Positions 10 through 64,000 of a DNA stretch of 64,000 nucleotides are shown here, piece after piece. The position numbers and the translations under genes were made by a program. Each line of letters begins with the position of its first letter. Position 1 is the first letter of the stretch. The stretch is from Alphaproteobacteria bacterium (lineage in GTDB: Bacteria > Pseudomonadota > Alphaproteobacteria > Rs-D84), in contig JAVBUT010000002.1 of the NCBI GenBank assembly GCA_031555055.1, forward strand, positions 210,165 through 274,164, read 5' to 3'. The notes below the pieces were generated by a model. That model searched no databases and had not been told where the DNA came from. It was given only the letters and a program-made list of their open reading frames with translations.

Positions 10-468
10 ATGTATGGCGAATATGAAGAGATTGTTGTGGAAAATCCGGTTGCCAAGTATTCCGGAATGTACGGAAAGTATGCCACGGACAGTGATGTTG
101 AAAAAATAAAGCCCACGCCGATTCGCGCGGCTGCACCGAAACCAAAGGCCGGTGATGCCAAACATCCGGTGCTGGCAAAAAAAGTCATGAAAAAGCCGGT
201 AAAACTATCTGAAACCCCCGTAATTCAGCCGGATCAAAAACAATCGGAAATGCCGGCCCCAATAGTTGTAAAACCGACAATAAAGCCAGAGCCGCAACCA
301 GCGGAAGCCGCGCCCCAGGCAAAAGACATTGCGGATTCGTTAAATAATAAACCGTTTGATGTGGACCAGTATTGCACAAAAATCAATCCGCCGGTGCTGG
401 GGCCGTTGCCGCCGGGACTGGTATTAATGCCAGGACGTCCGGACCAGATGTCCTGTGTTAAAAATTAA
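10..468 (+). CDS. C-terminal part of a proline/lysine-rich hypothetical protein (ORF enters from upstream of the window)
   Basis: Open frame from window edge to TAA at 466-468. Low-complexity P/K-rich composition. No recognisable domain. Confidence 0.35.
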   Translation: MYGEYEEIVVENPVAKYSGMYGKYATDSDVEKIKPTPIRAAAPKPKAGDAKHPVLAKKVMKKPVKLSETPVIQPDQKQSEMPAPIVVKPTIKPEPQPAEAAPQAKDIADSLNNKPFDVDQYCTKINPPVLGPLPPGLVLMPGRPDQMSCVKN

Positions 469-560
469 ATATAATCGTATATCTAAAACCGTTTGGCTCT
501 GGTCATGTATGTCCAATACACTCCCATCGCCAAACGGCTTTAGATATACGATTATATTTA
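469..560 (+). repeat. Long hairpin element (about 29-bp arms, 28-nt loop) immediately after the stop codon; loop carries core catgtatgtccaatacactcc shared with the family-C stop-codon-adjacent elements
   Basis: Left arm atataatcgtatatctaaaaccgtttggc at 469-497 pairs with gccaaacggctttagatatacgattatat at 529-557. Loop core matches 19.7 kb, 42.4 kb and 63.8 kb copies. Confidence 0.6.
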
Positions 561-589
561 ATTTTTATAGTCCGATTTTCAAACAATTT

Positions 590-7161: not shown

Positions 7162-7164
7162 ATA

Positions 7165-7274: not shown

Positions 7275-7316
7275 TTTTTATGTTATAATTAATCCATGAA
7301 GTAATGGAGAGATGTT

Positions 7317-9597: not shown

Positions 9598-10767
9598 ATG
9601 ACAAAAAACATATATATGGACGCCGCCGCCAGCAGCCTGAAACCACAGTCTGTGATTGATGCGGAAATGGATTTTTTACAAAATCGTTATGCAAACGCCG
9701 GGCGTGGAATATGCGCGCGTGCATCCGCGGTTGACAATATGGTGGCGAATACCCGTGACGCGGTCCGTGATTTTATTGGCGCGTCAAAATCCGACCAAAT
9801 TATTTTTACATCCGGCACCACGGACGGGATGAATAAAATCGCCAAAATGTTAAAAACTTCGTTATCGTTTGACGACAATTCTTTGGTTATGGTGTCCGAT
9901 CTGGATCATCACAGCGCGCGCATGCCGTTTGAAGAAATGCGCCATGGTGCCGGACGTAATTTTGCTGTATGTCCATTGGACAAAGAATTTAACATTGATA
10001 CTGAAAATATCCCGGCCGCCGACGTATTCGTTATTACCGCTATGTCAAACGTGCTGGGGGCGCCCCAGGATGTAAAAAAAATTATATCTGCGGCCCGTGC
10101 AAAAAATCCAGACGTTATAACGGTTGTCGACGCCGCACAATATGTTGCGTATTTGCCAATTGACGTTGCCGATTGGGATTGTGACTTTTTATGTTTTTCC
10201 GGGCACAAGATCGGCGCGGATACAGGTGTTGGTATAATGTATATAAAAGAGCCGAAAAAATGGTTCCCGGCGGAACTTGGTGGGGGCATGGTGTCGCGAA
10301 TAACAGGATCGGACGGATCAAACGACAGCCGATGGATTTTTATGTCCGCACCAGAAAAATTCGAAGCGGGCACATTGCCGCTGACCCAGATCGCGGGGTT
10401 GGTTTCGGCGATAAGGAATCAGGAATCAGGAATCCGCCTCCGCAGATGCTTCGGCGGACAAGTCAGGGATCAGGGATCGAGAATTGTGAGGTATCTGCAT
10501 GATGAGTTGTCAAAAATTGATCGTATAAAAATAATTACCAAACCAGATGCGGCGGTTTTGACATTCGTGGTCGACGGTATGCATGTGCTGGATTTTGGGG
10601 CTTTGGTGGGTGCGTCGGGCGTATGTATCCGCGTTGGAAACATGTGTGCGTCATGGATACATCGTTTATTGGGACAAGACGGCACGATACGGATATCTTG
10701 TGGATTCTGGAACACAATGGATGAAGCAAACGATGTTATTGATATAATAAAAAAGATATTGAAATGA
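9598..10767 (+). CDS. sufS: cysteine desulfurase, class V aminotransferase (SufS/NifS-like)
   Basis: PLP-lysine motif SGHK, TSGTT and class-V pattern. Followed by DUF59 and SufE genes. Carries a composite repeat insert at 10415-10483. Confidence 0.8.
   Translation: MTKNIYMDAAASSLKPQSVIDAEMDFLQNRYANAGRGICARASAVDNMVANTRDAVRDFIGASKSDQIIFTSGTTDGMNKIAKMLKTSLSFDDNSLVMVSDLDHHSARMPFEEMRHGAGRNFAVCPLDKEFNIDTENIPAADVFVITAMSNVLGAPQDVKKIISAARAKNPDVITVVDAAQYVAYLPIDVADWDCDFLCFSGHKIGADTGVGIMYIKEPKKWFPAELGGGMVSRITGSDGSNDSRWIFMSAPEKFEAGTLPLTQIAGLVSAIRNQESGIRLRRCFGGQVRDQGSRIVRYLHDELSKIDRIKIITKPDAAVLTFVVDGMHVLDFGALVGASGVCIRVGNMCASWIHRLLGQDGTIRISCGFWNTMDEANDVIDIIKKILK
10415..10483. repeat. composite GAATCAG-heptamer/core element inserted in-frame in sufS; same core as the miaB copy
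   Basis: ggaatcaggaatcaggaatcc-gcctccgcagatgcttcggcggacaagtcagg-gatcagggatcgag. The reverse complement occurs at 26836-26896. Confidence 0.75.
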
Positions 10768-11103: not shown

Positions 11104-11133
11104 GAAATGAAAAATGAAGAATGAAAAATGAAT
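11104..11133. repeat. ATGAAAA-type heptamer tandem array overlapping the sufE start
   Basis: aaatgaaaaatgaagaatgaaaaatgaat. Confidence 0.6.
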
Positions 11134-11493
11134 AATTATTCGGAAATAAAAAAATTATTATCAAATATTGACGATCCGGTTATGAAACTGGAAGTCGTCA
11201 TGGACATGGGAGGACAATTACCGTCAATCCCATCGGATGCAGCATGCACAGAGATTTATGGTTGCGCATCGCGCGTGCAGATATGTCGTGTCGGGAATAA
11301 TTTTTACGGTGCTGCGGACTCTGCCTTGGTGCGTGGGATTGTCGCGGTGATTTTGTCCATGGTAGACGGCAAAACGCCGGATGAAATCAGAAAAATCAAT
11401 CTGCGCGCAGAGTTTTCCGGCCTGGGTCTGAACCTGGGGGCTGGGCGCTTGAACGGTGTCAATTCTATGATTAGTTTTTTAGAAAATTTATGA
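11128..11493 (+). CDS. sufE: cysteine desulfuration protein SufE
   Basis: Active-site motif YGCASRVQI (GC.S.V) and SufE length. Confidence 0.8.
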   Translation: MNNYSEIKKLLSNIDDPVMKLEVVMDMGGQLPSIPSDAACTEIYGCASRVQICRVGNNFYGAADSALVRGIVAVILSMVDGKTPDEIRKINLRAEFSGLGLNLGAGRLNGVNSMISFLENL

Positions 11494-11836: not shown

Positions 11837-13471
11837 ATGTTTGAAGTAGGAAGGGATATTTTAAAAGGTGGCTTTAAATCCGCGGGCGCGGATGTTGCGT
11901 CACGTGGTCGACTGCGCATTGTATATTCTTTGTTTGTCATCGCATTTTCCATTTTTATTGTGAAAACATTGTGGTTGGGGGTCCAGGGCACAGACCGCGC
12001 ACGCCGCGGCACCGGGGCGGGCGACTGGGTGGTTACGCGCGCCGACATCGTTGACCGAAACGGCGATATTCTGGCCAAAAACATAATGTCCGGGCATATT
12101 ACGCTACGTCCACAACTGGTCAAGGATCGCGATGCTGTCGCAAGATTGATACATCAGACTATGCCAATGGAATACAGTCTGTCGGACGCGCTGGGGATGA
12201 TGAATTCGTCCAGACGATTCATTTATGTTAAAAAGCTGGCCGATGATTCCGCACGCAACGCCGTGGCAAACGCAAAACTGGCGGGATTGGACATAGAGCA
12301 GGTTCAAATGCGTCGTTATCCAAAGCGCCGGCTGTTCTCGCACATTGTCGGATTTGTCGGAAATGACGGACATGGGTTGGAAGGCGCGGAAAGAATATAC
12401 GATAGCTATCTGTCTGAAAATAAAGACCCGTTGCGGCTGTCGCTGGATTCGCGTATACAGTCCGTGTTTTACGAACAGCTGTCCGCGGCAATGCACAAAT
12501 ACCAGGCGAATGCCGCAATGGGCATGCTGATGAACTCACGCACGGGGGAAATGTTGGCGATTGTATCTTTGCCGGACTTTGATCCGGAAAATATTGCGTC
12601 GTCGACAACAGCCAGCCGTATGTTCATGCCATTGCGCGGCGTATTCGAAATGGGGTCCATATTCAAGATATTCAACACTGCCATGGCGTTCGAAAACGGG
12701 ATAAATAAAAAATACTTTGTTGGTACGCCGTACAAGATACCGGACAAATTCGGACGCACGGCTGCGATCATCGGCGATGTCAGCAGTTTGAAAAAAGTCA
12801 CCGACGTGACACCGAATATGTCTGTTCCGGAAATTATGCTGTATTCATGCAACGCGGGGTCTGCCCAGATTGCGTTGGATTTGCCGGACGGGGCCCAGCG
12901 CGAATTCTTTTCACGAATTCATTTGGACGATGCGTTGGATTTGGAATTTGGCCGGACCGAGCGTACATTGTTGCCGATCAAATGGGGACCGGTGGAAAGG
13001 GCGACAGTATCTTTTGGTCACGGTGTATCTGTAACGCCGATGCACGTGATGCTGGGGGTGAACGCTATGACAAACGGCGGGATATTCATATATCCGACGT
13101 TGCAAAAGCGCAGCATTGGTGCCGTCCGCGGCGAACGTGTGGTGTCACCGGACATATCTGCGACATTGCGCGGGATAATGTTCCGCGTCGCAGAAGAAAC
13201 GACCGCGAAACAGGCCAGAATCGCCGGCATTAACATTGGTGGGAAAACATCGACTGCGGAAAAAAGAATAAACGGCGTGATCGATCATAAAAAGAATCTG
13301 ACAGCATTCGTTGGGGCATTTCCGATAGAGGCGCCACAATACACCATACTGATTGTTCTGGACGAACCAAAGGGAACCCAGGAATCATACGGTCTGCGCA
13401 CGGCTGCGTGGAATGCGGTTCCGACCGCCGGCAAGATACTGGACAGCGTGTTGCCAATGCTGTTTGATTAA
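11837..13471 (+). CDS. ftsI: peptidoglycan D,D-transpeptidase FtsI (PBP3)
   Basis: GSIFK (SxxK), YSCN (SxN) and KTST (KTG-like) motifs. N-terminal TM segment. Confidence 0.8.
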   Translation: MFEVGRDILKGGFKSAGADVASRGRLRIVYSLFVIAFSIFIVKTLWLGVQGTDRARRGTGAGDWVVTRADIVDRNGDILAKNIMSGHITLRPQLVKDRDAVARLIHQTMPMEYSLSDALGMMNSSRRFIYVKKLADDSARNAVANAKLAGLDIEQVQMRRYPKRRLFSHIVGFVGNDGHGLEGAERIYDSYLSENKDPLRLSLDSRIQSVFYEQLSAAMHKYQANAAMGMLMNSRTGEMLAIVSLPDFDPENIASSTTASRMFMPLRGVFEMGSIFKIFNTAMAFENGINKKYFVGTPYKIPDKFGRTAAIIGDVSSLKKVTDVTPNMSVPEIMLYSCNAGSAQIALDLPDGAQREFFSRIHLDDALDLEFGRTERTLLPIKWGPVERATVSFGHGVSVTPMHVMLGVNAMTNGGIFIYPTLQKRSIGAVRGERVVSPDISATLRGIMFRVAEETTAKQARIAGINIGGKTSTAEKRINGVIDHKKNLTAFVGAFPIEAPQYTILIVLDEPKGTQESYGLRTAAWNAVPTAGKILDSVLPMLFD

Positions 13472-13766
13472 CCATTAGCGCATAACAAATAGCGTATAGC
13501 GATTAGCAAATAGTTACAGGTGCGAACATTTTGTCGTCATACCGGCGACTTGTCCACCGAAGCCTTGGCGAAGGTCGGAGCGCCTGTATAACGACCAGTG
13601 TGAAATATTTTTATTTTTTACAAAATACCGAATTCGGGTTATTTAAAACACAAATTTTGGAACAGAATATAATAAATAGGAAACGTTTCTTTTGTAATAA
13701 AAGAGGCTTATTCCATAGAAGATGCTATGCGCTAATCGCTATACGCTATTTGCTATGCGCTAATGG
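13472..13766. mobile_element. MITE-like element: about 43-bp near-perfect terminal inverted repeats (family A, tagc-rich) flanking about 210 bp of non-coding sequence
   Basis: ccattagcgcataacaaatagcgtatagcgattagcaaatag at 13472-13514 versus the reverse complement of gctatgcgctaatcgctatacgctatttgctatgcgctaatgg at 13724-13766. The internal ORF 13531-13770 is judged spurious. Confidence 0.65.
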
Positions 13767-13840
13767 TTAATGACTATTAACTATTTGCTATTGATCATTT
13801 AATTGCTATAATAATTCCGATAAGAAAAAAAGAGATTACG

Positions 13841-15607
13841 TTGAGAAAGATAGTAGAAAGATCCATGCTGGGCAAAGCGTGGGTTTGCGCGACAGAGTAT
13901 GAAGAAAACACGCCCAGCAGTACGATTTTAAAAGAAGACTTGTTAAAGAAAATATTGGAATCGCGCGGCGTTCGTAGCGGGGTCGATACCAGCAAGTTTT
14001 TAAATCCCAGCATAAAAGAATACATGCCCGACCCCAGCGTGCTGGCCGATATGGATTCGGCGGCGCGTATAATTGTCGACAATATTGTCGCCGGGCGGAA
14101 AATTGCCATATACGGCGACTATGACGTGGACGGAATAACGTCCAGTGCGATCATGGTGAAATATCTGCGTGCGGTTGGCGCAAACGTCGTATGGCACCTG
14201 CCAACGCGCGAAGGCGAAGGGTATGGTCTGAACTGTGATGCCGTCAGTGCGATCGCCGCGGACGGGGTCAATCTGATCGTGACCGTCGATTGCGGAATCA
14301 GCGGCGTGGAAGAAATTGCGCTGGCTAAAAAACTGGGGCTGGATGTCGTTGTTACCGATCATCATTCGCCTGACGGGAATCTGCCGGCGGCCGACGCGGT
14401 CGTGAATCCCAAACGCCTGGACGATACGTCCGGGATGTCTTATCTGGCGGGTGTCGGCGTGGCTTTTATGACACTGGTCGCCGTGAATAGAGAACTGAAG
14501 TCCAGAAATGACGATAAATTCCAAATTCCGCATTCTTTATTTTTGATCGATCTGATGGATTTGGTCGCGCTGGGGACGATATGCGACACAATGCCGTTGG
14601 TGGGACTGAATCGTGCGTTTGCTGCGACCGGCCTGAAAGTTCTGGCCAAGCGAAACAATGTCGGCCTGCGCGCGTTGATGGATATTGCAGTAATTAAATA
14701 GCAGACCAAATACAGCGTGATGTTCGCGCTGGGGCCGCGGTTGAATGCGGCGGGCCGTCTGGATTCTGCGGCGCCGGCGCTGGAACTGTTGTTGACGGAC
14801 AATATACTGGTCGCGAACGATCTGGCGGCAAAATTAAACCGCATGAACCAGGAACGCATAGATGTTCAAAATGCAATCATGATAAGTGCGACCGAAATGG
14901 CCCAGAAATGTTGCGCTTTGGGAAAATGCAGCCTGTTCGTATGTGGCGATAACTGGCGCACTGGGGTTATGGGGATCATCGCCGGGCGGCTGAAAGACAA
15001 ATATAACCTGCCGACATGTGTTGCGACGAAATGCGACGGCGTGATTGACGGGTCCGGCCGTTCTATACCGGGCGTCGATCTGGGGCGCATTGTCCATGAT
15101 GCGGCGGCATTGGGAATAATCAGCGGCGGCGGCGGCCATGCGGCGGCGGCCGGGTTTACTTTGCCGGCAGAGAATGAACAGAAATTCTGCGAATTTTTGG
15201 AAAAATCCGTCTTGGCGCAGTTGGATGGGAAAATTCCGGAAAACGAAACGGTTGTTGATGCCGAAATGGATGCCGGTGGCGCAACGATGAAGCTGGTGGA
15301 ACAACTGGCGGAACTGGAACCGTTCGGCCAGGCCAATCCGGAACCGACACTGGTACTGCGTGGCGGGACATTGGCCCACGCGACGATAATGGGCAAGGGC
15401 GGAACGCACTTGCGCGGATATATCAATACAGGCAACGGATCGCGCCTGGCGTTTGTGGGATTTAATATGGTCGGGACGCCGGTCGGTGATTTTTTGCTGG
15501 ACGATGCGCATACAAATACTAAAATGATGATGTTGGGAAAGTTAAAGGAAAACGAATACCAAGGCCGCGTATCGGCACAGTTCATTTTGGAAGACTTGGC
15601 AATTTAA
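13841..15607 (+). pseudogene. recJ: recJ single-stranded-DNA exonuclease interrupted by an in-frame TAG at 14699-14701 (two ORFs 13841-14701 and 14717-15607 in the same frame)
   Basis: DHH motifs (YGDYDVDG, DHH) in the first part. Conserved FALGPRLNAAGRL and DHHA1 region in the second part. The frames are identical and separated by a single amber codon. Confidence 0.6.
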
Positions 15608-18321: not shown

Positions 18322-19680
18322 ATGAAAAAAAATATTCGGCGATTTTTTATTGCTGTTTCTATCTTATTAAATTTGTCCGCATGTGACCTGCAGCCAAAGA
18401 TTACCGCACTGCCGGATACGGTCGGTGACTTTATATCCACGCGGTATCCGGCATTGCTGGCGGATCCGACAACCCAGCCAGAAATATACGATTCCGCTGC
18501 GACCGATTACGGCGTTTATGCGTCTCCGGAACTGTACGGCACATCCGGTGAATCCAGCATGGATGATTATCTGATGTACGCCAGTGTGGACGATTACACA
18601 TTGCGGCCGCAACAGACCCAGGTTGTCCGGGTTCCGATTATCGAAACAAAATCCGGTCAGACGGTTATTGTCAGCACCCCCAGCCCAATGGACGATTATC
18701 TGATGGTGCCCGCGTACGAGCATGTTGTTCACGACACGGTCGAGGTAATTGTATCCAAAGGCGACACTCTGTATTCCATATCCAAGAAATATTCGACCAC
18801 GGTTGGCGAATTGGCGACGATGAATAAATTGTCCGCGCCATACGCGTTGTCGGTTGGCCAAAAGATAAAAGTTCCGGTGCTGAAGACTGTCCCGGTGATA
18901 GAGCCGGCACCGATCGTCACCGCCGCGCCGATCATGGCGACACCGGTCAAGGCAGAAGTAGTAGAAGTGACCGTTACCAAGGGCGACACATTGTATTCCA
19001 TGTCGCGCAAATATGCTTTGCCGGTCAATGATCTGGCGGTTATGAATAAATTAAAACCACCGTTTACGCTGTCTGTTGGTCAGAAATTAAAAGTGCCAAA
19101 AATAACGGATGTTGCAATGCCGGACAAGACAATCGTGCCGGTGCGAACCACGACTGTGCCGACATCGCCAATTGTCGCGGCATCGCCGACACCGGTGCCG
19201 AAAACGGTAACACCGATACCGGTCAGACCGATTGCAACGCCGGCGCCGGCAAAGGTATCCAGCGCGCCGACCGCGCCATTGCCTAAAATAACATCGCGGT
19301 CATCGTCAAAGTTTTCCTGGCCGGTGCGCGGAACGATATTGTCCGGATATGGCGCAAAATCGACAGGCTTGTTCAACGACGGAATCAATATCGCGGCCAG
19401 TGCCGGCACCAAGGTCGGTGCGGCTGAAAACGGCGTCGTCGCATATGCGGGCAATGAACTGAAAGGTATGGGTAACCTGGTAATCGTCCAGCATTCAGAC
19501 GGCTGGATGACAGTCTATGCGCATATGGACCAGATGTCCGTGCGACGCGGCGTCAAGGTTACCGTGGGTCAGAAAATCGGAACTGTCGGCAAGACCGGCA
19601 AGGTTGACCGTCCGCAACTGCACTTTGAAATCCGCAAGGGAACCAAGGCGTACGATCCGAATGCATATTTAAAGAAATAA
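18322..19680 (+). CDS. nlpD: NlpD-like lipoprotein with two LysM domains and a C-terminal M23 peptidase domain
   Basis: Lipobox LSAC. Two LysM repeats (VSKGDTLYSISKKY...GQKIKVP). C-terminal M23 fold (AYAGNELKGMGNLVIVQH...HFEIRKG). Confidence 0.8.
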   Translation: MKKNIRRFFIAVSILLNLSACDLQPKITALPDTVGDFISTRYPALLADPTTQPEIYDSAATDYGVYASPELYGTSGESSMDDYLMYASVDDYTLRPQQTQVVRVPIIETKSGQTVIVSTPSPMDDYLMVPAYEHVVHDTVEVIVSKGDTLYSISKKYSTTVGELATMNKLSAPYALSVGQKIKVPVLKTVPVIEPAPIVTAAPIMATPVKAEVVEVTVTKGDTLYSMSRKYALPVNDLAVMNKLKPPFTLSVGQKLKVPKITDVAMPDKTIVPVRTTTVPTSPIVAASPTPVPKTVTPIPVRPIATPAPAKVSSAPTAPLPKITSRSSSKFSWPVRGTILSGYGAKSTGLFNDGINIAASAGTKVGAAENGVVAYAGNELKGMGNLVIVQHSDGWMTVYAHMDQMSVRRGVKVTVGQKIGTVGKTGKVDRPQLHFEIRKGTKAYDPNAYLKK

Positions 19681-19800
19681 AATTAAAGACAATGGCACAT
19701 CTGGTGACGGGGCCGGTGGCTTATGTATGTTTAATACACAACGCCATCGGCCTCGCCATCATCTGCACCATTCTTTTTAATTTTAAACAGCAGAGTTTAA
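19681..19800 (+). repeat. family-C stop-codon-adjacent element, diverged copy, directly 3 prime of nlpD
   Basis: taaaattaaagacaatggcacatctgg...ggtggcttatgtatgtttaatacacaacgccatc...cattctttttaattttaaacagc. Homologous to 42437-42565 and 63758-63885. Confidence 0.6.
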
Positions 19801-19815
19801 ATTTTTTTTCTGTAA

Positions 19816-20349
19816 TTATTCCAATATTCCGCAGGCATACCGTCCGCCACCACCGCCCAACGGTTGTGGGGTGTCGCTGTAATTATCGCCACCGTCATGG
19901 ATTATGATCGCACGACCGCGGACTTTGTTCAGGTTGAACTTTGATACTATGAACAGCTCGTCAATATTTCCGCGTTCGTCTGCATATACCACAGGCAAAT
20001 CGCCGGCGTGTCCGCCGCCACCAGGGCCCTTGTGCGTTCCGGTATTCCTGGGGTCATAGTGTGCCCCCGCGGCCAGACCGCGGCCAATCGTGCCATCCGG
20101 CCCGTTCGGCCCACATGACGTGCCGACATGAATGTGCATCCCGTGCAACCCTGTGGGAACATCGGTCATTGAAACCGCTATTTCTATTCCGTTTGGTACA
20201 CCGCGCAAGGCAATGTCCCCCAGCGGTTCTGCCATGCCTGTATCCGACAACCGATGCATTGTAGCACGCAGGGTAGTATCCTGTTTTTCGCACCCCAGCA
20301 TAACGCCAATGCATGCGATAATTGACATGATCAAAAGTATGTTTTTCAT
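19816..20349 (-). CDS. sodC: periplasmic Cu,Zn superoxide dismutase
   Basis: HGMHIHVGTSC, GGGGHAGDLP and GGGGGRYACGIL motifs. Lipoprotein-type signal (IIACIGVMLGC). Confidence 0.85.
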   Translation of the reverse strand: MKNILLIMSIIACIGVMLGCEKQDTTLRATMHRLSDTGMAEPLGDIALRGVPNGIEIAVSMTDVPTGLHGMHIHVGTSCGPNGPDGTIGRGLAAGAHYDPRNTGTHKGPGGGGHAGDLPVVYADERGNIDELFIVSKFNLNKVRGRAIIIHDGGDNYSDTPQPLGGGGGRYACGILE

Positions 20350-26163: not shown

Positions 26164-27575
26164 ACAATCTCCCCGCGCAGTGACGATTTATTAGCAGCAG
26201 TGATTTTAATGTTTTGCAGGGGCGAATCATTAGTGTCGCAACACGCGCTTACGACCACCTGCTGCATATACGGGGTACGAAATATCAGATTATTTCCGGT
26301 TTTGTCGGGTCCTTCGGTCAGACATTCAAAAGTTTTTCCAACGCATGATTCGTTAAATTCGCGCTGCAGATCGTTCAGGTATCCGTCCAGAATTTTCAGA
26401 CGTTCGCGTTTTTCCGGTTCAGAAATCTGATCCTTCATCAGTGCCGCCGCGGTATGGGGGCGGGGCGAATATTTGAACGAATAAGAATTTATATAACGAA
26501 CGCGTTTTGCGATTTCCATGGTTTTTGCGAAATCCGCGTCCGTCTCGCCAGGGAATCCGACGATAAAGTCCGACGATATTTGGATGTCCGGCCGCGCCGC
26601 GCGCAAACGGTCCACAATATCAATATACAGTTCCAAAGAATAAGGCCTGTTCATGCGGGTCAGAACATTCTGTGATCCGCTTTGGATCGGCAGGTTTAAA
26701 AACGGCAGTAATTTTGGTTCCGTCCGGAACAGGTCGATCAGATCATCTGTCATCTCGGTCGGATAGCTGGAAGTGAATCTTATGCGCTGTATCTGGGGCA
26801 GGGTGGCGGTTTCTTTGATAAGATCGGATAATGTACTGATTTCTGATTCCTGACTTGTCCGCCGAAGCATCTGCGGAGGTGGATTCCTAATTCCTTTATA
26901 CCCGTTCACATTTTGCCCCAGGAAACAAATTTCGATCGCGCCGGTTTCGGCGGCATGGCGGACATCGCGCATAACGCCATCGAATGGTCGCGACAGTTCT
27001 GGTCCGCGCGTGTATGGCACGATACAGTACGTGCAGACGTGGTTACAGCCTTCTTGGATCGGGATATATGCGATGGCCGGCGATGATGACATTTGGGGCA
27101 ACTCGTCGAATTTTTCAAGCCCACCAAGATCGACGTTTAATAAACGTGTGTCCGGATTGTCGATAATTTCCGGCAATTTGTGATAACTCTGTGGTCCCAA
27201 GACAAAATTTAATTCTGGTATTCTGCGGAATGCGTCGGCGCCGCTTTCGCGTGCGACACATCCGACAATGCCAAACAGCGCGTCCGGCTTTTTTGCCAAA
27301 CGGATTCGCCCCAGTGCACTGAACACTTTATTGGTCGCTTTTTCGCGCACGGAACAAGTGTTCAGAATAATCAGATCGGCATTCACGATTTCTGATGTTT
27401 CCGTCCAGCCGCGTTGTATTAACATGCTTGCGATACGCTGGCCGTCATAGACGTTCATCGCACAACCAAAGGTTTGGATGTGGAACAAATTCCCCGCCTG
27501 GGGCGGGGTGCCGTCGCCGTTATGCGTGGCGGGGTGGGTTAAAGAATTCGAAATATCCAATTTGTTTTTTTTCAT
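26160..27575 (-). CDS. miaB: tRNA-2-methylthio-N6-dimethylallyladenosine synthase MiaB (radical SAM)
   Basis: MTTase N-domain FHIQTFGCAMN, radical-SAM CNHVCTYC and TRAM domain. In-frame composite repeat at 26836-26896 encodes GIRNPPPQMLRRTSQESEI. Confidence 0.85.
   Translation of the reverse strand: MKKNKLDISNSLTHPATHNGDGTPPQAGNLFHIQTFGCAMNVYDGQRIASMLIQRGWTETSEIVNADLIILNTCSVREKATNKVFSALGRIRLAKKPDALFGIVGCVARESGADAFRRIPELNFVLGPQSYHKLPEIIDNPDTRLLNVDLGGLEKFDELPQMSSSPAIAYIPIQEGCNHVCTYCIVPYTRGPELSRPFDGVMRDVRHAAETGAIEICFLGQNVNGYKGIRNPPPQMLRRTSQESEISTLSDLIKETATLPQIQRIRFTSSYPTEMTDDLIDLFRTEPKLLPFLNLPIQSGSQNVLTRMNRPYSLELYIDIVDRLRAARPDIQISSDFIVGFPGETDADFAKTMEIAKRVRYINSYSFKYSPRPHTAAALMKDQISEPEKRERLKILDGYLNDLQREFNESCVGKTFECLTEGPDKTGNNLIFRTPYMQQVVVSACCDTNDSPLQNIKITAANKSSLRGEIV
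26836..26896. repeat. composite GAATCAG-heptamer/core element inserted in-frame in miaB (reverse orientation of the sufS copy)
   Basis: ctgatttctgattcctgacttgtccgccgaagcatctgcggaggtggattcctaattcc. The core matches 10426-10462 with 1 mismatch. Confidence 0.75.
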
Positions 27576-30613: not shown

Positions 30614-30689
30614 GGCTGGGTAGCTCAGTTGGTAGAGCAAGGGACTGAAAATCCCTGTGTCGGCGGTTCGATTCCGTCCCCAGCCACCA
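30614..30689 (+). tRNA. tRNA-Phe (anticodon GAA)
   Basis: GGCTGGG acceptor, TAGCTCAGTTGGTAGAGC D-arm, anticodon loop CTGAAAA, GGTTCGATTCC T-arm, CCA encoded. Confidence 0.9.
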
Positions 30690-30892
30690 GATTATAACAA
30701 AATGTTCCGTAAGGGACATTTTTTTATAATCTTTGTTGTTTTGTACCATTAAACCGCCCACAGGGATTTGAAGGTACTGAATCCGAGCGTATAAGCACAC
30801 AAAAATTTTCGTTGTTAGAAAATTTTTGATGTGCGCATAGTCGAGGATACGCGGCTCACTTGATAAATATTTACACTTGGGACCAAGCGAGC

Positions 30893-30935
30893 GAAAATCC
30901 CTGTGTCGGCGGTTCGATTCCGTCCCCAGCCACCA
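30893..30935 (+). repeat. direct duplicate of the 3 prime 43 nt of tRNA-Phe (anticodon loop to CCA); att-site remnant
   Basis: gaaaatccctgtgtcggcggttcgattccgtccccagccacca is identical to 30647-30689. Confidence 0.8.
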
Positions 30936-32865: not shown

Positions 32866-33345
32866 ATGATTTTGGCAGATTTCAAGGATTTTCCCCGACA
32901 GGGTCGGGTTATTGGAATAGACTGGGGCGCGCGACGTATCGGCGTCGCGGTGTCTGACGAATCTCGCGAATTTGTGTTCACGCGGGACGTGATAACAATC
33001 AGGAATCGGGAATCCACCGTTGCCAAGGCTTTGGCGGACAAGCCAGGAATCGGTGAAATTATAAAATTGGTAAAATCCGAAAAAATCGTCGGGATAATAA
33101 TCGGCTTGCCGGTGCATGCCGACGGGACGGACTCGGCGACGACAAAAATGGTTCGCGAATTCGCGGACGAATTGTCCGGTCAGACGGATTTGCCGGTCGT
33201 ATTTATCGAAGAGAATTTAACATCGGTCGCCGCAGCGGAGAGGAGTCAGGAGTCAGGAATCAGGAACAAGAATTTTTCGATTGATTCAGAGTCTGCGAAA
33301 ATAATACTGGAAAACGCAATCGCGATGATACGACGAATGGGATAG
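32866..33345 (+). CDS. ruvX: YqgF/RuvC-like Holliday-junction resolvase / pre-16S rRNA nuclease
   Basis: Motifs GIDWGARRIGVAVSD and IIGLP. Two in-frame heptamer triplet inserts at 32996-33017 and 33239-33267. Confidence 0.75.
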   Translation: MILADFKDFPRQGRVIGIDWGARRIGVAVSDESREFVFTRDVITIRNRESTVAKALADKPGIGEIIKLVKSEKIVGIIIGLPVHADGTDSATTKMVREFADELSGQTDLPVVFIEENLTSVAAAERSQESGIRNKNFSIDSESAKIILENAIAMIRRMG

Positions 33346-40739: not shown

Positions 40740-40743
40740 ATTA

Positions 40744-40773
40744 AATGAAAAATGAAAAATGAAAAGTGAAAAA
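40744..40773. repeat. ATGAAAA-type heptamer array between the TcpQ-like gene and the secretin gene
   Basis: aatgaaaaatgaaaaatgaaaagtgaaaaa. Confidence 0.55.
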
Positions 40774-40828
40774 TAATTCCTTGGTCATTGCATTTTTCCA
40801 AAGACTTGAAACACATAGGTGAGAGAAT

Positions 40829-42436
40829 ATGTACAAGATATTAAAAGTACTTTTCATTTTTAATTTTTCCTTTTTCATTTTGACTGGGTGCGTAAAGAAG
40901 GAATCCGCCCAGGTGGCGTCCGCCGTCGACCAGGACTTTGTCAATGCGCACGATGCGTTCGAAATGGCGAAAAATCCGCGCGCCAAGGTTACCAGCACCG
41001 ATACCGTGTCAATGTCCGAAGGTGTTTGGCTGGGGGCGAAATCCACTTTGCTGGAACATAAAAACAATTTGCCGGGCACATACGAAAATGACACAGGTGT
41101 GACAATCCTGTTGAATGAGCCCGTATCGTTACAGGTTTTGGCCAACAATATTTCATCCATAACGAATATTCCTGTCAAAATCGACAGCCAGGTAAATACT
41201 GAAAAATTAAAAAAGACCATGAATATTGCCTATACCGGCAAGTTGTCTGGTTTGCTGTCCCAGGTTTCGACAGATCTGGATTTGTTGTGGTATTACGACA
41301 AAAGCTCTATCGTGTTTTATGAAACGGAAACAAAAACATTCACACTGTATGCGCTGGGGACGGATGTCGCGTACCAGTCTGTAATCCGTACGGATGACGG
41401 CAACGGCGTTTCATTGGAATCTAATTTAAAAGAATGGGAAGAAGTCGAACGCACGATCGGATCGATTGTCGGCAAAACAGCGAATGCAAACTTTACCGTA
41501 TCTAAAAGCTTGGGCACGATCACGGTTACCGCGCCGCCTTCGATCCAGCACCGCGTCAGCGAATACATCGCACGCCAGAACAAGCGTTTGTCCCAGCTGG
41601 TGACGATCGACGTAAAGGTTCTGCAGGTGTCCATGAACAACAACACCGCGTTTGGCCTGAACTTGGCGATGGCGATTAATTCTGCGGCGGGTCTGAATAT
41701 CGTTGCGAATCCGAAAAACAATCTGCAAACCACCGAAGCCAGCACAATGAATGTCGCGGTGCTGTCGGGATTGTCATTTGCGGACGCTGCAGGCAAGGTT
41801 CCGGCAGGCGCTACACCGGACCAGATCAATTCGGGCAGTCTGAAAAATATCGCAGGAACTGATGCGCTGATCAGTGCGCTGGCCAAGCAAGGCAAAATAT
41901 CGCTGGTGACGAACGTTGGGGTTACGACACGCAACAACCGCGTCGCCCCGGTCAGCAACACCCGCACAACCGGATATATCAAACGTTTTGAATCACGCAA
42001 TTTTACAACTGTCGAATCCAGCACTGTGGACCAGGATGATTTGGAAACAGGATTCAGCATGCAGCTGTTGCCTAATGTTCTGGAAAATGGAAAAATCTTG
42101 TTACTGTTCAAAATGTCGATTCGTGAACTGTTGCAGATGCAGACGCAGAAAATCGGCGAAGTGACATTGCAGTTGCCAGACGTAGAAGAGCGCAGCTTTA
42201 TGCAGGAAGTAATTATGGAATCCGGCCAAATGCTGGTTCTGTCGGGATTTGAACGTCAGACGAACAATGATACGCGTTATGGCTTGGGCGATCCGGACTT
42301 TATGGCGCTGTCGGGTTCGCGCGAATCCCAATCGACCAAGGACGTTTTGGTTGTCATCCTGACACCGCAAGTACTGGTCAGCCCGATGGATGCAGAGCGG
42401 TCTATCCAGCAAAACTGGGGCGCACCACTAAATTAA
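40829..42436 (+). CDS. lipoprotein secretin (type IVb pilus TcpC/BfpB-like, GspD/PilQ superfamily)
   Basis: Lipobox ILTGC. C-terminal secretin domain with conserved ending ...STKDVLVVILTPQVL. Confidence 0.65.
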   Translation: MYKILKVLFIFNFSFFILTGCVKKESAQVASAVDQDFVNAHDAFEMAKNPRAKVTSTDTVSMSEGVWLGAKSTLLEHKNNLPGTYENDTGVTILLNEPVSLQVLANNISSITNIPVKIDSQVNTEKLKKTMNIAYTGKLSGLLSQVSTDLDLLWYYDKSSIVFYETETKTFTLYALGTDVAYQSVIRTDDGNGVSLESNLKEWEEVERTIGSIVGKTANANFTVSKSLGTITVTAPPSIQHRVSEYIARQNKRLSQLVTIDVKVLQVSMNNNTAFGLNLAMAINSAAGLNIVANPKNNLQTTEASTMNVAVLSGLSFADAAGKVPAGATPDQINSGSLKNIAGTDALISALAKQGKISLVTNVGVTTRNNRVAPVSNTRTTGYIKRFESRNFTTVESSTVDQDDLETGFSMQLLPNVLENGKILLLFKMSIRELLQMQTQKIGEVTLQLPDVEERSFMQEVIMESGQMLVLSGFERQTNNDTRYGLGDPDFMALSGSRESQSTKDVLVVILTPQVLVSPMDAERSIQQNWGAPLN

Positions 42437-42565
42437 AATTAAATACAACAACGCATTTGGCGCGATTTGGGGTGGCTTATGTATGTTCAATACACTACGC
42501 CACCCCAAATCACACCAACTACATCATTCTCTTTAATTTTAACAGCCCGGTTTTGGGCCGTTTTT
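42437..42565 (+). repeat. family-C stop-codon-adjacent element directly 3 prime of the secretin gene
   Basis: taaaattaaatacaacaacgcatttggcgcgatttggggtggcttatgtatgttcaatacactacgccaccccaaatcac...cattctctttaattttaacagcccgg. 93% identical to 63758-63885. Confidence 0.75.
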
Positions 42566-42570
42566 AATTT

Positions 42571-42620
42571 AGTCAATAGTCTTTAGTCACTAGTAGGGGC
42601 GCATATTTGCGCCCGTATGT
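42571..42620. repeat. family-B half element (tagtca repeats + taggggcgcatatttgcgccc hairpin)
   Basis: agtcaatagtctttagtcactagtaggggcgcatatttgcgcccgtatg. Compare 62397-62544. Confidence 0.6.
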
Positions 42621-42635
42621 TTTTATAGTCTGGTT

Positions 42636-43079: not shown

Positions 43080-43547
43080 ATGTTCTATAAAATTGGATTT
43101 TGGGTTTTGCTGGCGATTGTGCTGGCGTGCGTCGGGCTGTTTATGTTCACAAACCCTATGAAAAATAATGGTGCAATGTCTTGGGTTGATGTTTATTCCA
43201 ACGATCCGACCGCGACATTAAAATTTATGAACGATACTTTTGATATACGGGTTACCGAAACATCCGTGGTGCCGGACGGCGGTGGCGACTATAATGTAAT
43301 CAAGTCCAAGGGATCATTGTGGCCGTTCGCGGGCGTTATGAAGGCGCCGGAAATGCACGGACATAAAGTTCCGGCCGGAACCATGATATATCTGACGGTT
43401 ACGGATTATGCGATGATGTCGGCCAAAATGGTCGCCAATGGCGCCAAACCAATAGAGGAAGATATCGTTGCCGCCGGTATGCGTTTCGGCGTGTATGAAA
43501 TTCCTGGTGGGCTGACCATCGGCATCGCACAGTATGGTGTGAAATAA
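43080..43547 (+). CDS. hypothetical protein with N-terminal TM helix; weak glyoxalase/VOC-like resemblance
   Basis: AGGAGAAAACTATG RBS. 155 aa. Confidence 0.35.
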   Translation: MFYKIGFWVLLAIVLACVGLFMFTNPMKNNGAMSWVDVYSNDPTATLKFMNDTFDIRVTETSVVPDGGGDYNVIKSKGSLWPFAGVMKAPEMHGHKVPAGTMIYLTVTDYAMMSAKMVANGAKPIEEDIVAAGMRFGVYEIPGGLTIGIAQYGVK

Positions 43548-43695
43548 ATTTCTATGGATGCTTTCGCGTGTTCACAGACCCTCGTGTACGTTTTGTACAT
43601 GTCAGGTCTGCGAACCCACGCAATCATATCATATAAATTTATTTCAAATACTAAGGGCGGGCGGATGAGAACCGTACCCACGTTTTTTGGTTTAT

Positions 43696-45816: not shown

Positions 45817-45845
45817 AAAATCCCGCGATGCGGGATTTTTTAACA

Positions 45846-45931
45846 ATTAGCTCATAGCAAATAACATATAGTGTTTAGCGTATAGTATATTGTTAATCGC
45901 TATGCGCTATATGCTATGGACTATGCGCTAG
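45846..45931. repeat. family-A palindromic element (tagc-rich inverted repeat)
   Basis: ttagctcatagcaaataacatatagtgtttagcgtatag ... ctatgcgctatatgctatggactatgcgctag. Confidence 0.55.
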
Positions 45932-45953
45932 TTATTATTCTATACTCACCCTT

Positions 45954-48598: not shown

Positions 48599-49227
48599 TG
48601 GGTAGCGCGACCTTGTCCCAAGGTCGCACGTGACAACCTTGGGACAAGGTTGTCCTACCATTTTCAAGTTAAATGAAAAAATGCAAAACGATGATATATT
48701 TTTCAGAAAGAAATTAGATCATGAAATTCCATATTGGGTTAAGTCGGATTCAATATTTTTTATAACAATAAATACATTGCCACGTGGAAAAAATAATCTT
48801 GCGACTTTTAATATTTCGAAAATAATTAGAGATAGTCTGCGATTTTATCAATCAAAAGGTTTGATATATGTTGAATATTTACTGCTGATGCCGGATCATT
48901 TGCATATGCTGGTCGCATTTAATGATATCCCTATGGAAAAATTTATACAACAATGGAAAAAATATATTTCCAGAAATACAAAGGTTGAATGGCAGCGTGA
49001 TTTTTTTGATCATCGGATACGAAATGGCGAATCTTTGCAAGAAAAAATAGATTATATATCAAATAATCCAGTTCGTAAAAATTTTGTGGTTAATTCGTTT
49101 GATTGGAAGTATCAGTGGTTGAGAGGGATGCATGAATTATCAGATTTTGATTTAGGATCATAATTAGGCATGACCGGTTTGTCCCAAACTGGTCATGTGC
49201 GACCTTGGGGACAAGGTCGCGCTACCC
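48599..49227 (+). mobile_element. REP-RAYT-REP unit: IS200/IS605-like HUH tyrosine transposase (RAYT) flanked by inverted pairs of REP hairpins
   Basis: Left gggtagcgcgaccttgtcccaaggtcgc + gacaaccttgggacaaggttgtc. Right catgaccggtttgtcccaaactggtcatg + gcgaccttggggacaaggtcgcgctaccc. The outermost arms are mutually inverted. Confidence 0.7.
48681..49163 (+). CDS. REP-associated tyrosine transposase (RAYT, IS200-like TnpA)
   Basis: HUH motif MPDHLHMLV. RAYT-type motif WQRDFFDHRIRN with downstream catalytic Tyr region (EKIDYISNNP). About 30% GC. Confidence 0.7.
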   Translation: MQNDDIFFRKKLDHEIPYWVKSDSIFFITINTLPRGKNNLATFNISKIIRDSLRFYQSKGLIYVEYLLLMPDHLHMLVAFNDIPMEKFIQQWKKYISRNTKVEWQRDFFDHRIRNGESLQEKIDYISNNPVRKNFVVNSFDWKYQWLRGMHELSDFDLGS

Positions 49228-50759: not shown

Positions 50760-50761
50760 AA

Positions 50762-50985
50762 ATGAAAAATGAAGAATGAAAAATGAAAAATGAAAAATGA
50801 AGAATGAAGAATGAAAAATGAAGAATGAAAAATGAAAAGTGAGGAACAAAATAGAATATAAAAGTTATAAAAGTACAGAGTAAAGATATTATGAATCACT
50901 CTGTACTTTTGTAACTATTAAATAATAACTGTTGTGCGTAAAATCACTGATTACTTTTCATTTTTCATTCTTCATTTTTCATTTA
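50762..50985. repeat. composite palindromic heptamer element: 12 tandem ATGAA(A/G)A units, a central 13-bp-stem hairpin, then 4 inverted TTTTCAT units
   Basis: atgaaaa atgaaga ... x12 at 50762-50845. Hairpin aaaagtacagagt...actctgtactttt at about 50870-50912. ttttcatttttcattcttcatttttcattt at 50955-50984. Confidence 0.7.
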
Positions 50986-62375: not shown

Positions 62376-62396
62376 AATGCCCGTTCGGGCATTTTT

Positions 62397-62544
62397 TAGT
62401 CATTAGTCTTTGGTCAATAGTCATTAGTAGGGGCGCATATTTGCGCCCATATGATTTCATATCATGGTTTACAAAACATGGCGAATTTACATTCGCCCCT
62501 ACTAATGACTATTGACTAATGACTATTGACTAACGACTATTGAC
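62397..62544. repeat. family-B composite palindromic element: tagtca-rich inverted arms around a taggggcgcatatttgcgccc hairpin
   Basis: Left arm gtcattagtctttggtcaatagtcattagtaggggcg versus right arm cgcccctactaatgactattgactaatgactattgac. Confidence 0.65.
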
Positions 62545-62638: not shown

Positions 62639-63757
62639 ATGGAATTTTCAGTCTTTCGCCAGGTTTTGATCCGTGCGCTGGGGCATATGCAGTCTATCGT
62701 TGAAAAACGCGCGACTCTGCCGATCTTGATGAACGTCAAGATAGAGGTTGCAGACGATATGGTGTTAAGTGCAACCAATGTCGACTTGGAATTGGTCGAA
62801 CATGTCGCTGCGGACATCACATTGCCGGGCAAGACGACCGTTCCGGTTCAAATGCTGTACGATATTGTGCGCAAGCTGCCTGATGACGCTGAAATCAACT
62901 TTAAACAATCCGGCGACCAGCTGGTTGTGTCCAGCGGTCGCGCGATATTCCGTCTGCCGACATTGCCTGCGGAAAATTTCCCGGCGATGGCGGGCGCAAA
63001 CCTGACCACTAAATTCCAAATGACAACCGGCGATCTGGGGCACCTGATCAACAAGACAAAATTTGCGATTCCGGTTGACGATGTCCGCTATCACTTGGGC
63101 GGGATATATTTCCATATCACCGAAGAAGGCAAAAGCAAAATGCTGACCGCGGTTGCGACCGACGCCCAGCGTATGGCGCTGTGCGAAATGCCGGTACCCA
63201 GCGGCGCGACCGACATGCCGTCCGTAATTTTGCCGCGTCGTGTTATCGGGGAACTGTCAAAGTTGCTGGAAGATGCGACTGTTGATGATGTTATGGTCGA
63301 ACTGTCCGATACCAAGGCCCGCTTTACCGTCGGCAGTGCCATACTGACATCCAAACTGGTTGATGCCCAATATCCAAATTATCGCGTCGTTATTCCAAAG
63401 GGCAACGACAAGATCGCAACATTGGACCGTAAATCGTTCGTCAATGCCGTTGACTTGGTTTCCGTGGCGTCCCAGGATAAAACAAAATCAGTGCAATTGA
63501 CATTCAGCATGAACAAGCTGGTTATTAACGCATCCAGTCCGGAAAACGGAACCGCAACCCAGGAATTGGATGTGGAATACAACGGTGACAATTCCTTTAC
63601 GATTTTGTTCAGTGTTAAATTCTTGCTGGACATCACATCTCAGGTCGAAGGAAACAAGTTCCAGATGGAAATGCAGGACCCGATGTCTCCGACAATTCTG
63701 AAATCTACAGAAAAAAAGACGGATGCGTTGTTTGTCCTAATGCCGTTAAAGATGTAA
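62639..63757 (+). CDS. dnaN: DNA polymerase III beta sliding clamp
   Basis: Three-domain beta-clamp pattern. N-terminus MEFSVFRQVL...ILMNVKIEV. C-terminal MPLKM. Confidence 0.9.
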   Translation: MEFSVFRQVLIRALGHMQSIVEKRATLPILMNVKIEVADDMVLSATNVDLELVEHVAADITLPGKTTVPVQMLYDIVRKLPDDAEINFKQSGDQLVVSSGRAIFRLPTLPAENFPAMAGANLTTKFQMTTGDLGHLINKTKFAIPVDDVRYHLGGIYFHITEEGKSKMLTAVATDAQRMALCEMPVPSGATDMPSVILPRRVIGELSKLLEDATVDDVMVELSDTKARFTVGSAILTSKLVDAQYPNYRVVIPKGNDKIATLDRKSFVNAVDLVSVASQDKTKSVQLTFSMNKLVINASSPENGTATQELDVEYNGDNSFTILFSVKFLLDITSQVEGNKFQMEMQDPMSPTILKSTEKKTDALFVLMPLKM

Positions 63758-63885
63758 ATAAATTAAATATAACAGCGCATTTGGCGCGATTTGGGGTGGC
63801 TTATGTATGTTCAATACACTACGCCACCCCAAATCACGCTAACTACGCCATTCTTTTTAATTTATTACAGCCCGGTTTCGGGCAA
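63758..63885 (+). repeat. family-C stop-codon-adjacent element directly 3 prime of dnaN
   Basis: taaataaattaaatataacagcgcatttggcgcgatttggggtggcttatgtatgttcaatacactacgccaccccaaatcac...cattctttttaatttattacagcccggtttcggg. Followed by terminator at 63903-63930. Confidence 0.75.
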
Positions 63886-63902
63886 TTTTATTTTCATCAT
63901 AT

Positions 63903-63930
63903 AAAAAAACCGGCATACGCCGGTTTTTAT
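63903..63930 (+). terminator. rho-independent terminator
   Basis: aaaaaaaccggcatacgccggttttt. Confidence 0.7.
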
Positions 63931-64000
63931 CGAATTTTTATCACCAATCCGCATGTACCATAAGGTGTCAATTTGCTGGCGCCGTCTTTGCGGGTTACGT

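Follow-up and report, generated by a model that had tools for sequence, protein, structure and literature searches.

The 64,000-nucleotide stretch of Alphaproteobacteria bacterium DNA analysed here (the window; contig JAVBUT010000002.1, positions 210,165 to 274,164) carries five copies of a palindromic repeat, all on the + strand and each beginning within a few bases of a TAA stop codon. The element is a long-hairpin member of the class that includes repetitive extragenic palindromic (REP) sequences, REPINs, and miniature inverted-repeat transposable elements (MITEs), i.e. a small, non-coding, non-autonomous palindromic repeat. It behaves as mobile DNA that is gained and lost at orthologous sites, and the conserved entity is the hairpin, not merely its ends. 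The antisense strand, opposite to the upstream gene, forms the better hairpin in all 27 of the copies that were aligned.

REP-like repeats have been known for forty years. Whether selection acts on their hairpins at the DNA level, for transposition, or at the RNA level, for host gene expression, is still unsettled, and so is the reason why they crowd the 3′ ends of genes. The family described here is an unusually clean test case, as its copies share a single orientation and a single position, at the stop codon, and each forms one long hairpin; deep interspecies covariation and natural filled and empty sites among close relatives add to this. Its strand asymmetry gives opposite predictions for a DNA model and an RNA model. 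Additionally, the repeats break the assemblies of abundant uncultured gut Alphaproteobacteria, create spurious open reading frame (ORF) calls, and alter the C-termini of real proteins, as in the tolB gene of one related locus (L045; handles beginning with L denote loci).

Position, fold, and covariation

An earlier note on this DNA had described four copies, each downstream of a + strand gene, and all four hairpins are found where it placed them, at TAA stops of + strand genes (copies 1–4 in Table 1). A fifth, diverged copy was added with a covariance model (R1) that was built from 16 copies; it scores 62.5 bits with the model, and copy 3 scores 111 bits. The four reported copies each fold to a ~50-bp hairpin with z values of −8.8 to −15.8 relative to shuffles. 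The 17-nt core of the tip, ATGTATGTnnAATACAC, has four exact matches in the window, always on the + strand, and 0.23 matches with up to 2 mismatches are expected by chance. When the whole window was scanned exhaustively with filters off, the five copies were the only ones, and no element was seen in the reverse orientation. Copies 3 and 4 share 93% identity, a similarity that extends ~20 nt past the hairpin. This shared stretch, which copies 1 and 2 match more loosely, reads ACAGCCCGGTTTyGGGC and then a T run, and it forms a small terminator-like hairpin in the sense direction. The tail of copy 3, which resembles a sense-direction terminator, is common to copy 4 and to the tolB copy of L045. 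Two mechanically predicted ORFs (19692..19907 and 63781..63963) do overlap elements, as had been pointed out.

Each convincing copy is associated with a long same-strand ORF that ends −11 to +8 nt from the first A of the left end, AAATTAAAT, and the agreement in strand with the upstream gene, another of the earlier claims, holds in the window and in ~25 other genomes. The stops adjacent to copies are TAA in all but one case; TAA ends 69% of the 64 ORFs of the window. About a quarter of the copies lack a preceding TAA, and the gene there uses the TAA inside AAATTAAAT. This is seen in copy 1, whose own left end holds the stop of the 152-aa ORF upstream, and the left end of copy 5 likewise contains the stop of its ORF. 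In L045 the final three tolB codons (RLP*) are replaced by the element-encoded KLN*. The extension of an ORF by the element never exceeds about 3 codons and no copy lies deeper inside an ORF. The upstream genes were recognised from their translations, and several were confirmed by Pfam or by called-gene tables. Most are housekeeping genes, and they comprise rho, yebC, ftsK, efp, dnaN, rpsR, rpoA, ybaB, rpsM, rpsK, fabF, and tolB, as well as the gene for the pilus secretin (pilQ), an NlpD-like peptidase gene, and a few unknowns; the gene upstream of copy 3 is a match to Pfam Secretin.

The identity of the element as an intrinsic terminator was rejected. In L020 one copy sits between rpsM and rpsK and another after rpsK, within the operon, so the element cannot be a sense-direction terminator, and a separate canonical terminator follows within ~100 nt 3′ of about half of the copies. 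Its place, 5′ of the terminator of the gene or between cistrons, means that the element is necessarily transcribed, as the first ~110 nt after the ORF. In 23 of 24 loci the element reads in the sense direction on the G-rich strand, even where most of the ORF length is opposite, and this G-rich strand is presumably the leading strand. The GC skew of the + strand is positive throughout the window. Housekeeping genes usually lie on the leading strand, so a link to replication and an effect of gene class are inseparable here. Comparison of the flanks of the copies revealed no fixed target motif beyond A-richness.

The unit spans 105–115 bp and features A/T-rich ends that pair with each other, a variable stem, and a conserved apical module. 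The basal stem consists of A/T only, with AAATTAAAT(A)TAAT pairing with ATTcTaTTTAATTT, so the ends read AAATTAAAT...ATTTAATTT, and the first ~13 nt past the stop are A/U only. The motif CATCTG is found in the lower stem on each arm. The upper stem is GC-richer and its sequence is quite different among lineages, yet it remains complementary. The apical module is conserved as uCATGTATGTyyAATACACTmC, in which TGTAT and ATACA form a 5-bp helix closed by a 5-nt loop.

The earlier claim of a conserved hairpin with compensatory changes in its arms was borne out by two alignments. In the first (A3, 16 sequences), changes on both sides were found in 28 of 46 pairs and 86% of the cells are paired, a value that falls to 33–48% when the partners are slid. 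In the second (A4, 27 sequences), 35 of 45 pairs are doubly changed and 81% of the cells are paired (34–49% with slid partners). None of 500 shuffles reaches the observed number of double changes in either alignment. The tip helix covaries in copy 5, L004b, L020B, and L045/L050; in copy 5 it is the compensated TGTAC-GTTTT-GTACA, as compared with TGTAT...ATACA in others. Even the basal stem is replaced in a compensated manner in L018, where AAATGTGATTAGAAT pairs with ATTCTAATCACATTT and the stop is TAG. Covariation alone does not prove selection at the RNA level, because template-switch repair can copy changes between the arms of a palindrome.

Other identities were considered for the conserved parts. 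Two of the three sense frames are open over most of the element; the conserved ATGs of the tip open ORFs that continue across the variable arm but lack a consistent ribosome-binding site, and the element was judged non-coding by reading the sequence. The tip fits none of a LexA box, an IHF site, a dif/XerCD site, a CtrA box, and a tRNA T-loop, compared by eye with the consensus sequences. A kink-turn at the internal loop of the tip is a misfit in register; a tandem G.A or a GUA/GA loop would suit the sequence better.

Outside the window, ~30 further copies were found in roughly 25 uncultured Alphaproteobacteria (Ca. Enterousia and relatives). Pattern scans with the left end and the tip, made with no gene constraint, returned 16 loci from species-representative genomes and 27 loci from metagenomes, and the covariance model determined that ~25 of these are full-length copies. 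Additional copies came from syntenic loci that were fetched via DnaN homologues. The two features by which the earlier note set the family apart from an ordinary dispersed repeat, the stop-codon bias and the compensatory substitutions, are both seen in copies from the pattern scans. The metagenome-assembled genomes (MAGs) that host the element are labelled Ca. Enterousia, 'Rickettsiales bacterium', or 'Alphaproteobacteria bacterium', their sources are animal guts and termite guts, and their DnaN proteins are 85–93% identical to that of the window. The host genomes are strongly reduced, since one of them is a complete 716-kb chromosome. Two loci of the genome scan (L012 and L016) and the metagenome loci with no model match were treated as chance pattern matches; L044 and a locus from a Rickettsia MAG (L013, 36 bits) are weak and doubtful relatives. 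No match was found in viral contigs or in PLSDB plasmids. Two tRNAs pass the Rfam gathering threshold in the whole window and no family does so for the element, while at E<=10 the surroundings of copy 3 give only sub-threshold microRNA-precursor hairpins, the best of them on the − strand. The complete 716-kb MAG OZ246409.1 (L015/L051) carries the label 'uncultured Muribaculaceae'. Its DnaN is 90% identical to that of the window and its alphaproteobacterial gene order is the same, so the taxonomic label is probably wrong.

Mobility and strand asymmetry

The site at the dnaN stop is filled in the window and in L004 and is empty in L005, L006, L047/L049, and L050. The efp stop is filled in L004, L005, L006, L045, and L050 and empty in L047/L048, and the L047 lineage has no copy in 20 kb. 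In the spacer between rpsM and rpsK the element is present in L020 and absent from L015, L027, and L033; L020 also has a copy after rpsK, where L015 and L033 have none. At the empty sites the stop abuts the canonical terminator or the spacer. The genomes with an empty dnaN site encode DnaN proteins that are 81–93% identical to that of the window. The two filled dnaN sites differ in stem and tip, and the three copies of JAZTYU01 have identical stems. Tandem arrangements are common and consist of an intact stop-proximal hairpin followed by a second one without the left end, which is more variable or decayed. These observations bear on the proposal, made in the earlier note, of a TAA-targeting MITE. 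Its mobility is seen in the orthologous sites that are filled or empty; the duplication of TAA was not found. No TA or TAA target-site duplication is consistent among the copies, none appears when filled and empty dnaN, efp, rpsM, and rpsK sites are compared, and about a quarter of the copies are without any flanking TAA.

Several loci near the dnaN and tolB genes add single observations. A public contig with the exact dnaN of the window ends inside the element (Logan SRR23967709, L017, 1.2 kb), a break that is expected because the element is a repeat. The same run holds a 17-kb contig (L046) with a 92%-identical dnaN and no element at the site. From these two contigs, related strains with and without the dnaN insertion seem to coexist in one sample. 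In L045 an unrelated GC-rich palindrome of ~125 nt (ATTCCCCGCTTGGGCGGGGTG..., 11125-11250) lies 6 nt past the dnaN stop, in the place of copy 4 of the window, which suggests that the stop-proximal site attracts more than one hairpin family. The tolB copy of the same locus (19285-19620) coincides with a break in synteny, the next gene being an ABC transporter versus a 137-aa gene in L047 and L050, and the element may mediate rearrangements of this kind.

The two strands of the element do not fold equally well. In every one of the 27 aligned copies the antisense strand folds better, with a mean gap of 10.3 kcal/mol (Wilcoxon p = 1.5e-8), and the advantage is also obtained with DNA parameters. 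The fold energies of copy 3 are −40.4 kcal/mol (sense) and −58.9 kcal/mol (antisense). The difference lies in the non-Watson-Crick positions, which are A.C and tandem U.C/C.U on the sense strand and G.U and tandem G.A on the antisense strand. Over 22 copies the antisense strand has 68 G.U pairs versus 27 for the sense strand, and in six consecutive columns of the lower stem the counts are 30 versus 0. By the usual criterion, pairing of the antisense strand is preserved, or the sense hairpin is deliberately weakened. Mutation bias was rejected as the cause of the asymmetry: deamination of an exposed strand predicts the opposite, and the sense strand of the element has more C than G (491 versus 321), against the G over C skew of the host strand.

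An antisense RNA is unlikely for the copies that are internal to operons. When an antisense promoter was sought, the flanks proved not to be conserved, and a single promoter-like site was seen near copy 3, which belongs to a possible 99-aa ORF. By analogy with attC sites, the ends of IS200/IS605 insertion sequences (IS), and REPs (PMC8266576), strand-specific recognition of a folded single DNA strand may account for the asymmetry in place of an antisense RNA. The motif GNAG lies directly 5′ of the 5-bp tip hairpin on the antisense strand only.

Proposed copying of the bottom strand and rival explanations

The explanation that we favour, at about an even chance, combines copying of the bottom-strand DNA hairpin by a trans-acting Y1 transposase with persistence of the copies where their transcribed, weakened form is harmless or useful. 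Copying would proceed via a folded single-stranded DNA form of the bottom strand, the substrate of a strand-specific HUH/Y1 tyrosine transposase that is encoded in trans and is of the RAYT (REP-associated tyrosine transposase) or IS200 type. Copies would persist only at the 3′ ends of ORFs, oriented so that the transcribed form is the weak hairpin. The AU-only basal stem would let the ribosome reach the stop, and the GC-rich upper stem may serve as a 3′ hairpin that buffers the end of the mRNA by stabilisation or processing.

The window encodes the right kind of enzyme for this process. Among ~50 of the 64 predicted ORFs that were annotated, one that follows dnaA directly is a RAYT (NCBIfam NF047646.1, 87 bits with a cutoff of 80; Pfam Y1_Tnp, 24.8 bits with a cutoff of 23), for which a 100% identical 160-aa protein, P0121, is on record. 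Together with a REP doublet on each side it forms a complete REPtron at 48601-49226, which begins 11 nt past the dnaA stop. Its closest homologues, among the best 120 of 550 matches, are 58–65% identical and come from termite-gut contigs, where the homologous REPtrons sit after groEL. The RAYT of the window is only a candidate for the trans-acting enzyme of hairpin repeats, and a link to the stop-codon element is not supported by its flanks, which are GTAG-CGCGACCTTGTCCCAAGGTCGC doublets and not the element; on this ground the RAYT was rejected as the cognate enzyme via REPtron flanks.

Other observations also weigh against copying of the bottom strand by such a transposase. The homologues of the RAYT in four other contigs (L052-L056), like the enzyme of the window, are flanked by a different, classical REP, GTAG/GTGG-GCGACCTTGTCCCAAGGTCGC. 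No copy of the element was found in 20 kb around one RAYT homologue, and the covariance model finds none in L052/L053; a weaker point is that close RAYT homologues were unseen for the element-bearing Enterousia genomes among the best 120 of 550 matches. In the alignment of 27 sequences the GNAG motif is GTAG in 10 copies and GGAG in 9, and it is internal, unlike the terminal tag of REPs. The IS200/IS605 paradigm places the active strand on the lagging-strand template, which is the sense strand here, and the better-folding strand is the other one. The compensatory changes could have arisen in a DNA palindrome by template-switch repair instead of selection, the role at the mRNA level is pure inference, and the absence of copies elsewhere in intergenic DNA or in reversed orientation is still without a mechanistic explanation.

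A host-selected, cis-acting sense RNA is the main rival, a possible but clearly less probable explanation. In this case a stop-proximal hairpin in the 3′ untranslated region (UTR) or between cistrons would stabilise or process the upstream message, for example by blocking exonucleases, by offering RNase III a site like those of phage T7, or by binding a protein at its tip; the U.C/C.U and A.C loops would be functional, the stability of the antisense strand would be a by-product, and spread would result from horizontal exchange or infrequent recombination. All copies are in the sense orientation, between the stop and the terminator or between the cistrons of highly expressed operons, and several species keep the element after efp, rpoA, fabF, pilQ, and dnaN even as the stems covary. 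Reduced genomes are expected to delete useless DNA quickly, and the element persists in genomes of ~0.7 Mb. The intact state of the stop-proximal hairpin in tandems, where the distal one is variable or decayed, and the A/U-only first ~13 nt, which a terminating ribosome could open, are also consistent with a cis-acting RNA. However, almost all non-Watson-Crick positions of the lower stem read A.C on the sense strand, where selection for sense pairing predicts the reverse. The clear events of gain and loss and the 93% identical copies indicate active copying, a terminator is part of the repeated unit in the window and in L045, and there is no Rfam match at the thresholds given above. The 3′-UTR RNA element of the earlier note is thus plausible in that co-transcription with the gene fits it, but the test of G.U versus A.C favours the opposite strand. 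Selection at two levels was also considered, and it is rather doubtful. The bottom-strand DNA hairpin would be the copying substrate, the top-strand RNA would be a deliberately weakened hairpin that the translation stop tolerates or uses, and insertion might be coupled to the end of translation, e.g. via single-stranded DNA left open by an RNA polymerase that continues with no ribosome behind it in highly expressed leading-strand genes. If true, this would make the element a 'stop-codon-homing' portable 3′-end module, which brings a stop codon, a hairpin, and sometimes a terminator.

The remaining candidates have lower probabilities. A selfish, TA-targeting MITE of a DDE transposase (IS630/Tc1 type, kin to Correia, ERIC, and RUP), whose hairpin would be long terminal inverted repeats, is improbable. 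It agrees with the A/T-rich inverted repeats at the ends, with the TA that borders both ends of the canonical copies 1–4 and of roughly half of the remainder, and with the size, copy number, and long stem-loop of bacterial MITEs as described (PMC2229807). It is at odds with the absence of a TA or TAA duplication, and excision of the efp copy with one TA would delete the stop of that gene. The stem covaries widely, and in L018 the terminal repeats do so too, which is unexpected for ends that bind a transposase; the strict rules of orientation and stop codon are foreign to MITEs, the repeated unit runs past the right inverted repeat, and no IS that shares the ends of the element was found in 464 kb of fetched loci, in which left and right ends more than 115 nt apart were sought. 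An RNA of the antisense strand, either a terminator or insulator against convergent transcription or a small RNA gene that ends at the stop codon, is similarly improbable. It would suit the better fold of the antisense strand, whose G.U pairs and tandem G.A precede a U-rich stretch overlapping the stop-codon complement, and copies 1 and 2, the only hairpins between convergent genes (trmB-like and sodC). Many copies, however, are inside operons of co-directional genes (rpsM-rpsK-rpoA) or precede a canonical terminator that is bidirectional, where antisense transcription is not expected, the U-rich tail itself belongs to the stem, and conservation ends at the ends of the hairpin, so there is no conserved promoter. 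An attC-like recombination site of an integron is hardly credible and is effectively refuted by gene context. The position after the stop, the uniform orientation, and the folding bias toward the bottom strand mimic attC and VCR sites, but core genes with conserved synteny lie upstream (dnaN, rpoA, rpsM, efp, and rho), the copies are scattered over the genome with no cassette arrays, the ends read from the sequence are AAATTAAAT/ATTTAATTT and not RYYYAAC/GTTRRRY, and no integrase was found among ~50 window ORFs scanned.

Other window features and comparison with known systems

The coordinates of the copies, their tails, the REPtron, and a further class of repeats are collected in Table 1.

Table 1. 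Copies of the stop-codon element and other repeat features of the window
Feature	Position	Strand	Description
Copy 1	459..567	+	nearly perfect palindrome; downstream of ORF 10..468 (TAA 466-468)
Copy 2	19679..19785	+	abuts TAA 19678-19680 of LysM/M23 peptidase (NlpD-like) gene 18322..19680
Copy 3	42433..42543	+	long hairpin starting on TAA 42434-42436 of secretin gene 40829..42436
Copy 3, 3′ tail	42545..42565	+	small hairpin GCCCGGTTTTGGGC, then T run
Copy 5	43542..43645	+	diverged; left end contains TAA 43545-43547 of ORF 43080..43547
Upstream REP doublet	48601..48659		GTAG-tagged GGTAGCGCGACCTTGTCCCAAGGTCGCAC and inverted partner; family distinct from the stop-codon element
RAYT gene	48681..49163	+	directly after dnaA
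Downstream REP doublet	49169..49226		completes the REPtron with the RAYT gene and the upstream doublet
Copy 4	63757..63866	+	begins at last base of TAA 63755-63757 of dnaN 62639..63757
Copy 4, 3′ tail	63870..63895	+	GCCCGGTTTCGGGC, then T-rich run
Canonical terminator	63903-63933		after the tail of copy 4
Heptamer-repeat regions, part 1	50760-50842, 50955-50984, 40743-40774, 11105-11136, 62396-62544, 42569-42635
Heptamer-repeat regions, part 2	7159-7287, 13467-13794, 45840-45944, 10417-10478, 26838-26895, 32997-33056, 3142-3173

Many intergenic regions of the window hold tandem repeats of heptamers, which are AAATGAA, ACTAATG/TAGTCAT, GCTATnC, and AATCAGG. These repeats form inverted blocks around GC-rich hairpins, and some of the central hairpins are GTAG-tagged REPs, e.g. 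GTAGGGGCGCATATTTGCGCCC at 42593-42614 and 62423-62444. Cyanobacterial STRR repeats resemble these arrays, and a similar resemblance is seen in the TAACTGA repeats of Beggiatoaceae (PMC4679880). The recJ gene (13841-15607) is split by an in-frame TAG at 14699-14701, after which conserved RecJ sequence continues in frame (...AVIK*QTKYSVMFALGPRLNAAGRL); read-through of the stop, a pseudogene, and an error in sequencing are all possible. Of the 64 predicted ORFs, 12 have TAG as their stop. A tRNA-Phe gene (30614-30689) is followed 190 nt downstream by a 55-nt, 93%-identical copy of its 3′ part (30881-30935), which looks like the remnant of an integration (att) site.

REPs and REPINs are the closest comparison for the stop-codon element in several respects. 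A REP is a palindrome of 20–40 nt with one end tagged by an unpaired GTAG (or CGTC) (PMC3733652, PMC8266576). REPs are found within 20 bp of the ends of upstream ORFs, mostly downstream of ORFs, and their termini often supply the stop codon (PMC3733652), so the adjacency of the element to stop codons has precedent. TnpA_REP acts strand-specifically on single-stranded REP hairpins and requires the 5′ GTAG and conserved mismatches (PMC8266576). REPINs are hairpins of ~90–110 nt in which compensatory changes are common, and they are randomly distributed in extragenic space (PMC3116915). The element is likewise a non-coding extragenic palindrome that is copied within genomes, with a long hairpin kept by compensatory changes and multiple copies per genome (five in 64 kb). 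It lies within −11 to +8 nt of the stop, and its own TAA is the stop in about a quarter of the copies. In contrast to the doublet of 20–40-nt REPs, however, it is a single hairpin of 105–115 nt, it has an internal GNAG only and no terminal GTAG or CGTC tag, and the local RAYT is flanked by another REP. It conserves the tip and the ends and varies the stem, the reverse of REPINs, and it is strictly anchored to the stop and locked in orientation.

The element also resembles the MITEs of bacteria (Correia/NEMIS, ERIC/IRU, RUP, and YPAL; PMC2229807), which are 100–170 bp long and A/T-rich, with inverted ends that bear TA. MITEs fold into long stem-loops when they are co-transcribed and can alter the stability of mRNA, e.g. 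by RNase III processing of Correia transcripts (PMC2229807). The element differs from these in that neither a target-site duplication nor a cognate IS was found in the comparisons and loci described above, that the stem covaries deeply between species, and that one orientation and a fixed stop-codon position are kept. The Rickettsia palindromic elements (RPEs) are palindromic repeats of ~100–150 bp in genome-reduced Alphaproteobacteria, as is the element, and the one relative in a Rickettsia MAG (L013) is weak at 36 bits. By description, RPEs are inserted in-frame inside ORFs, whereas the element reaches only the last ~3 codons; RPE-4 and RPE-6 end in CGTC (PMC3733652). The attC (VCR) sites share with the element a place directly after the stop, one orientation, and an imperfect palindrome with a better or active bottom-strand fold, but the element has no cassette arrays, integrase, or R/L core sites and its host genes are core genes.

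Two further systems are comparable in their position relative to the stop. Liang, Rudd and Deutscher reportedly found in 2015 that REP elements within 15 nt of stop codons stall ribosomes, and the mycobacterial MIRUs of Supply et al. (1997) are said to overlap stop and start codons in the orientation of the gene. MIRUs are not palindromic and the effect in E. coli concerns short, GC-rich REPs. What is distinctive is the set of a single ~110-nt hairpin with conserved tip and ends, a free-running stem, the lack of an end tag, an absolute rule of position and orientation, deep covariation, strand asymmetry, and hosts among reduced gut Alphaproteobacteria. On this basis the element is filed as a new long-hairpin variant of the REP/REPIN/MITE type that is a member of no named family.

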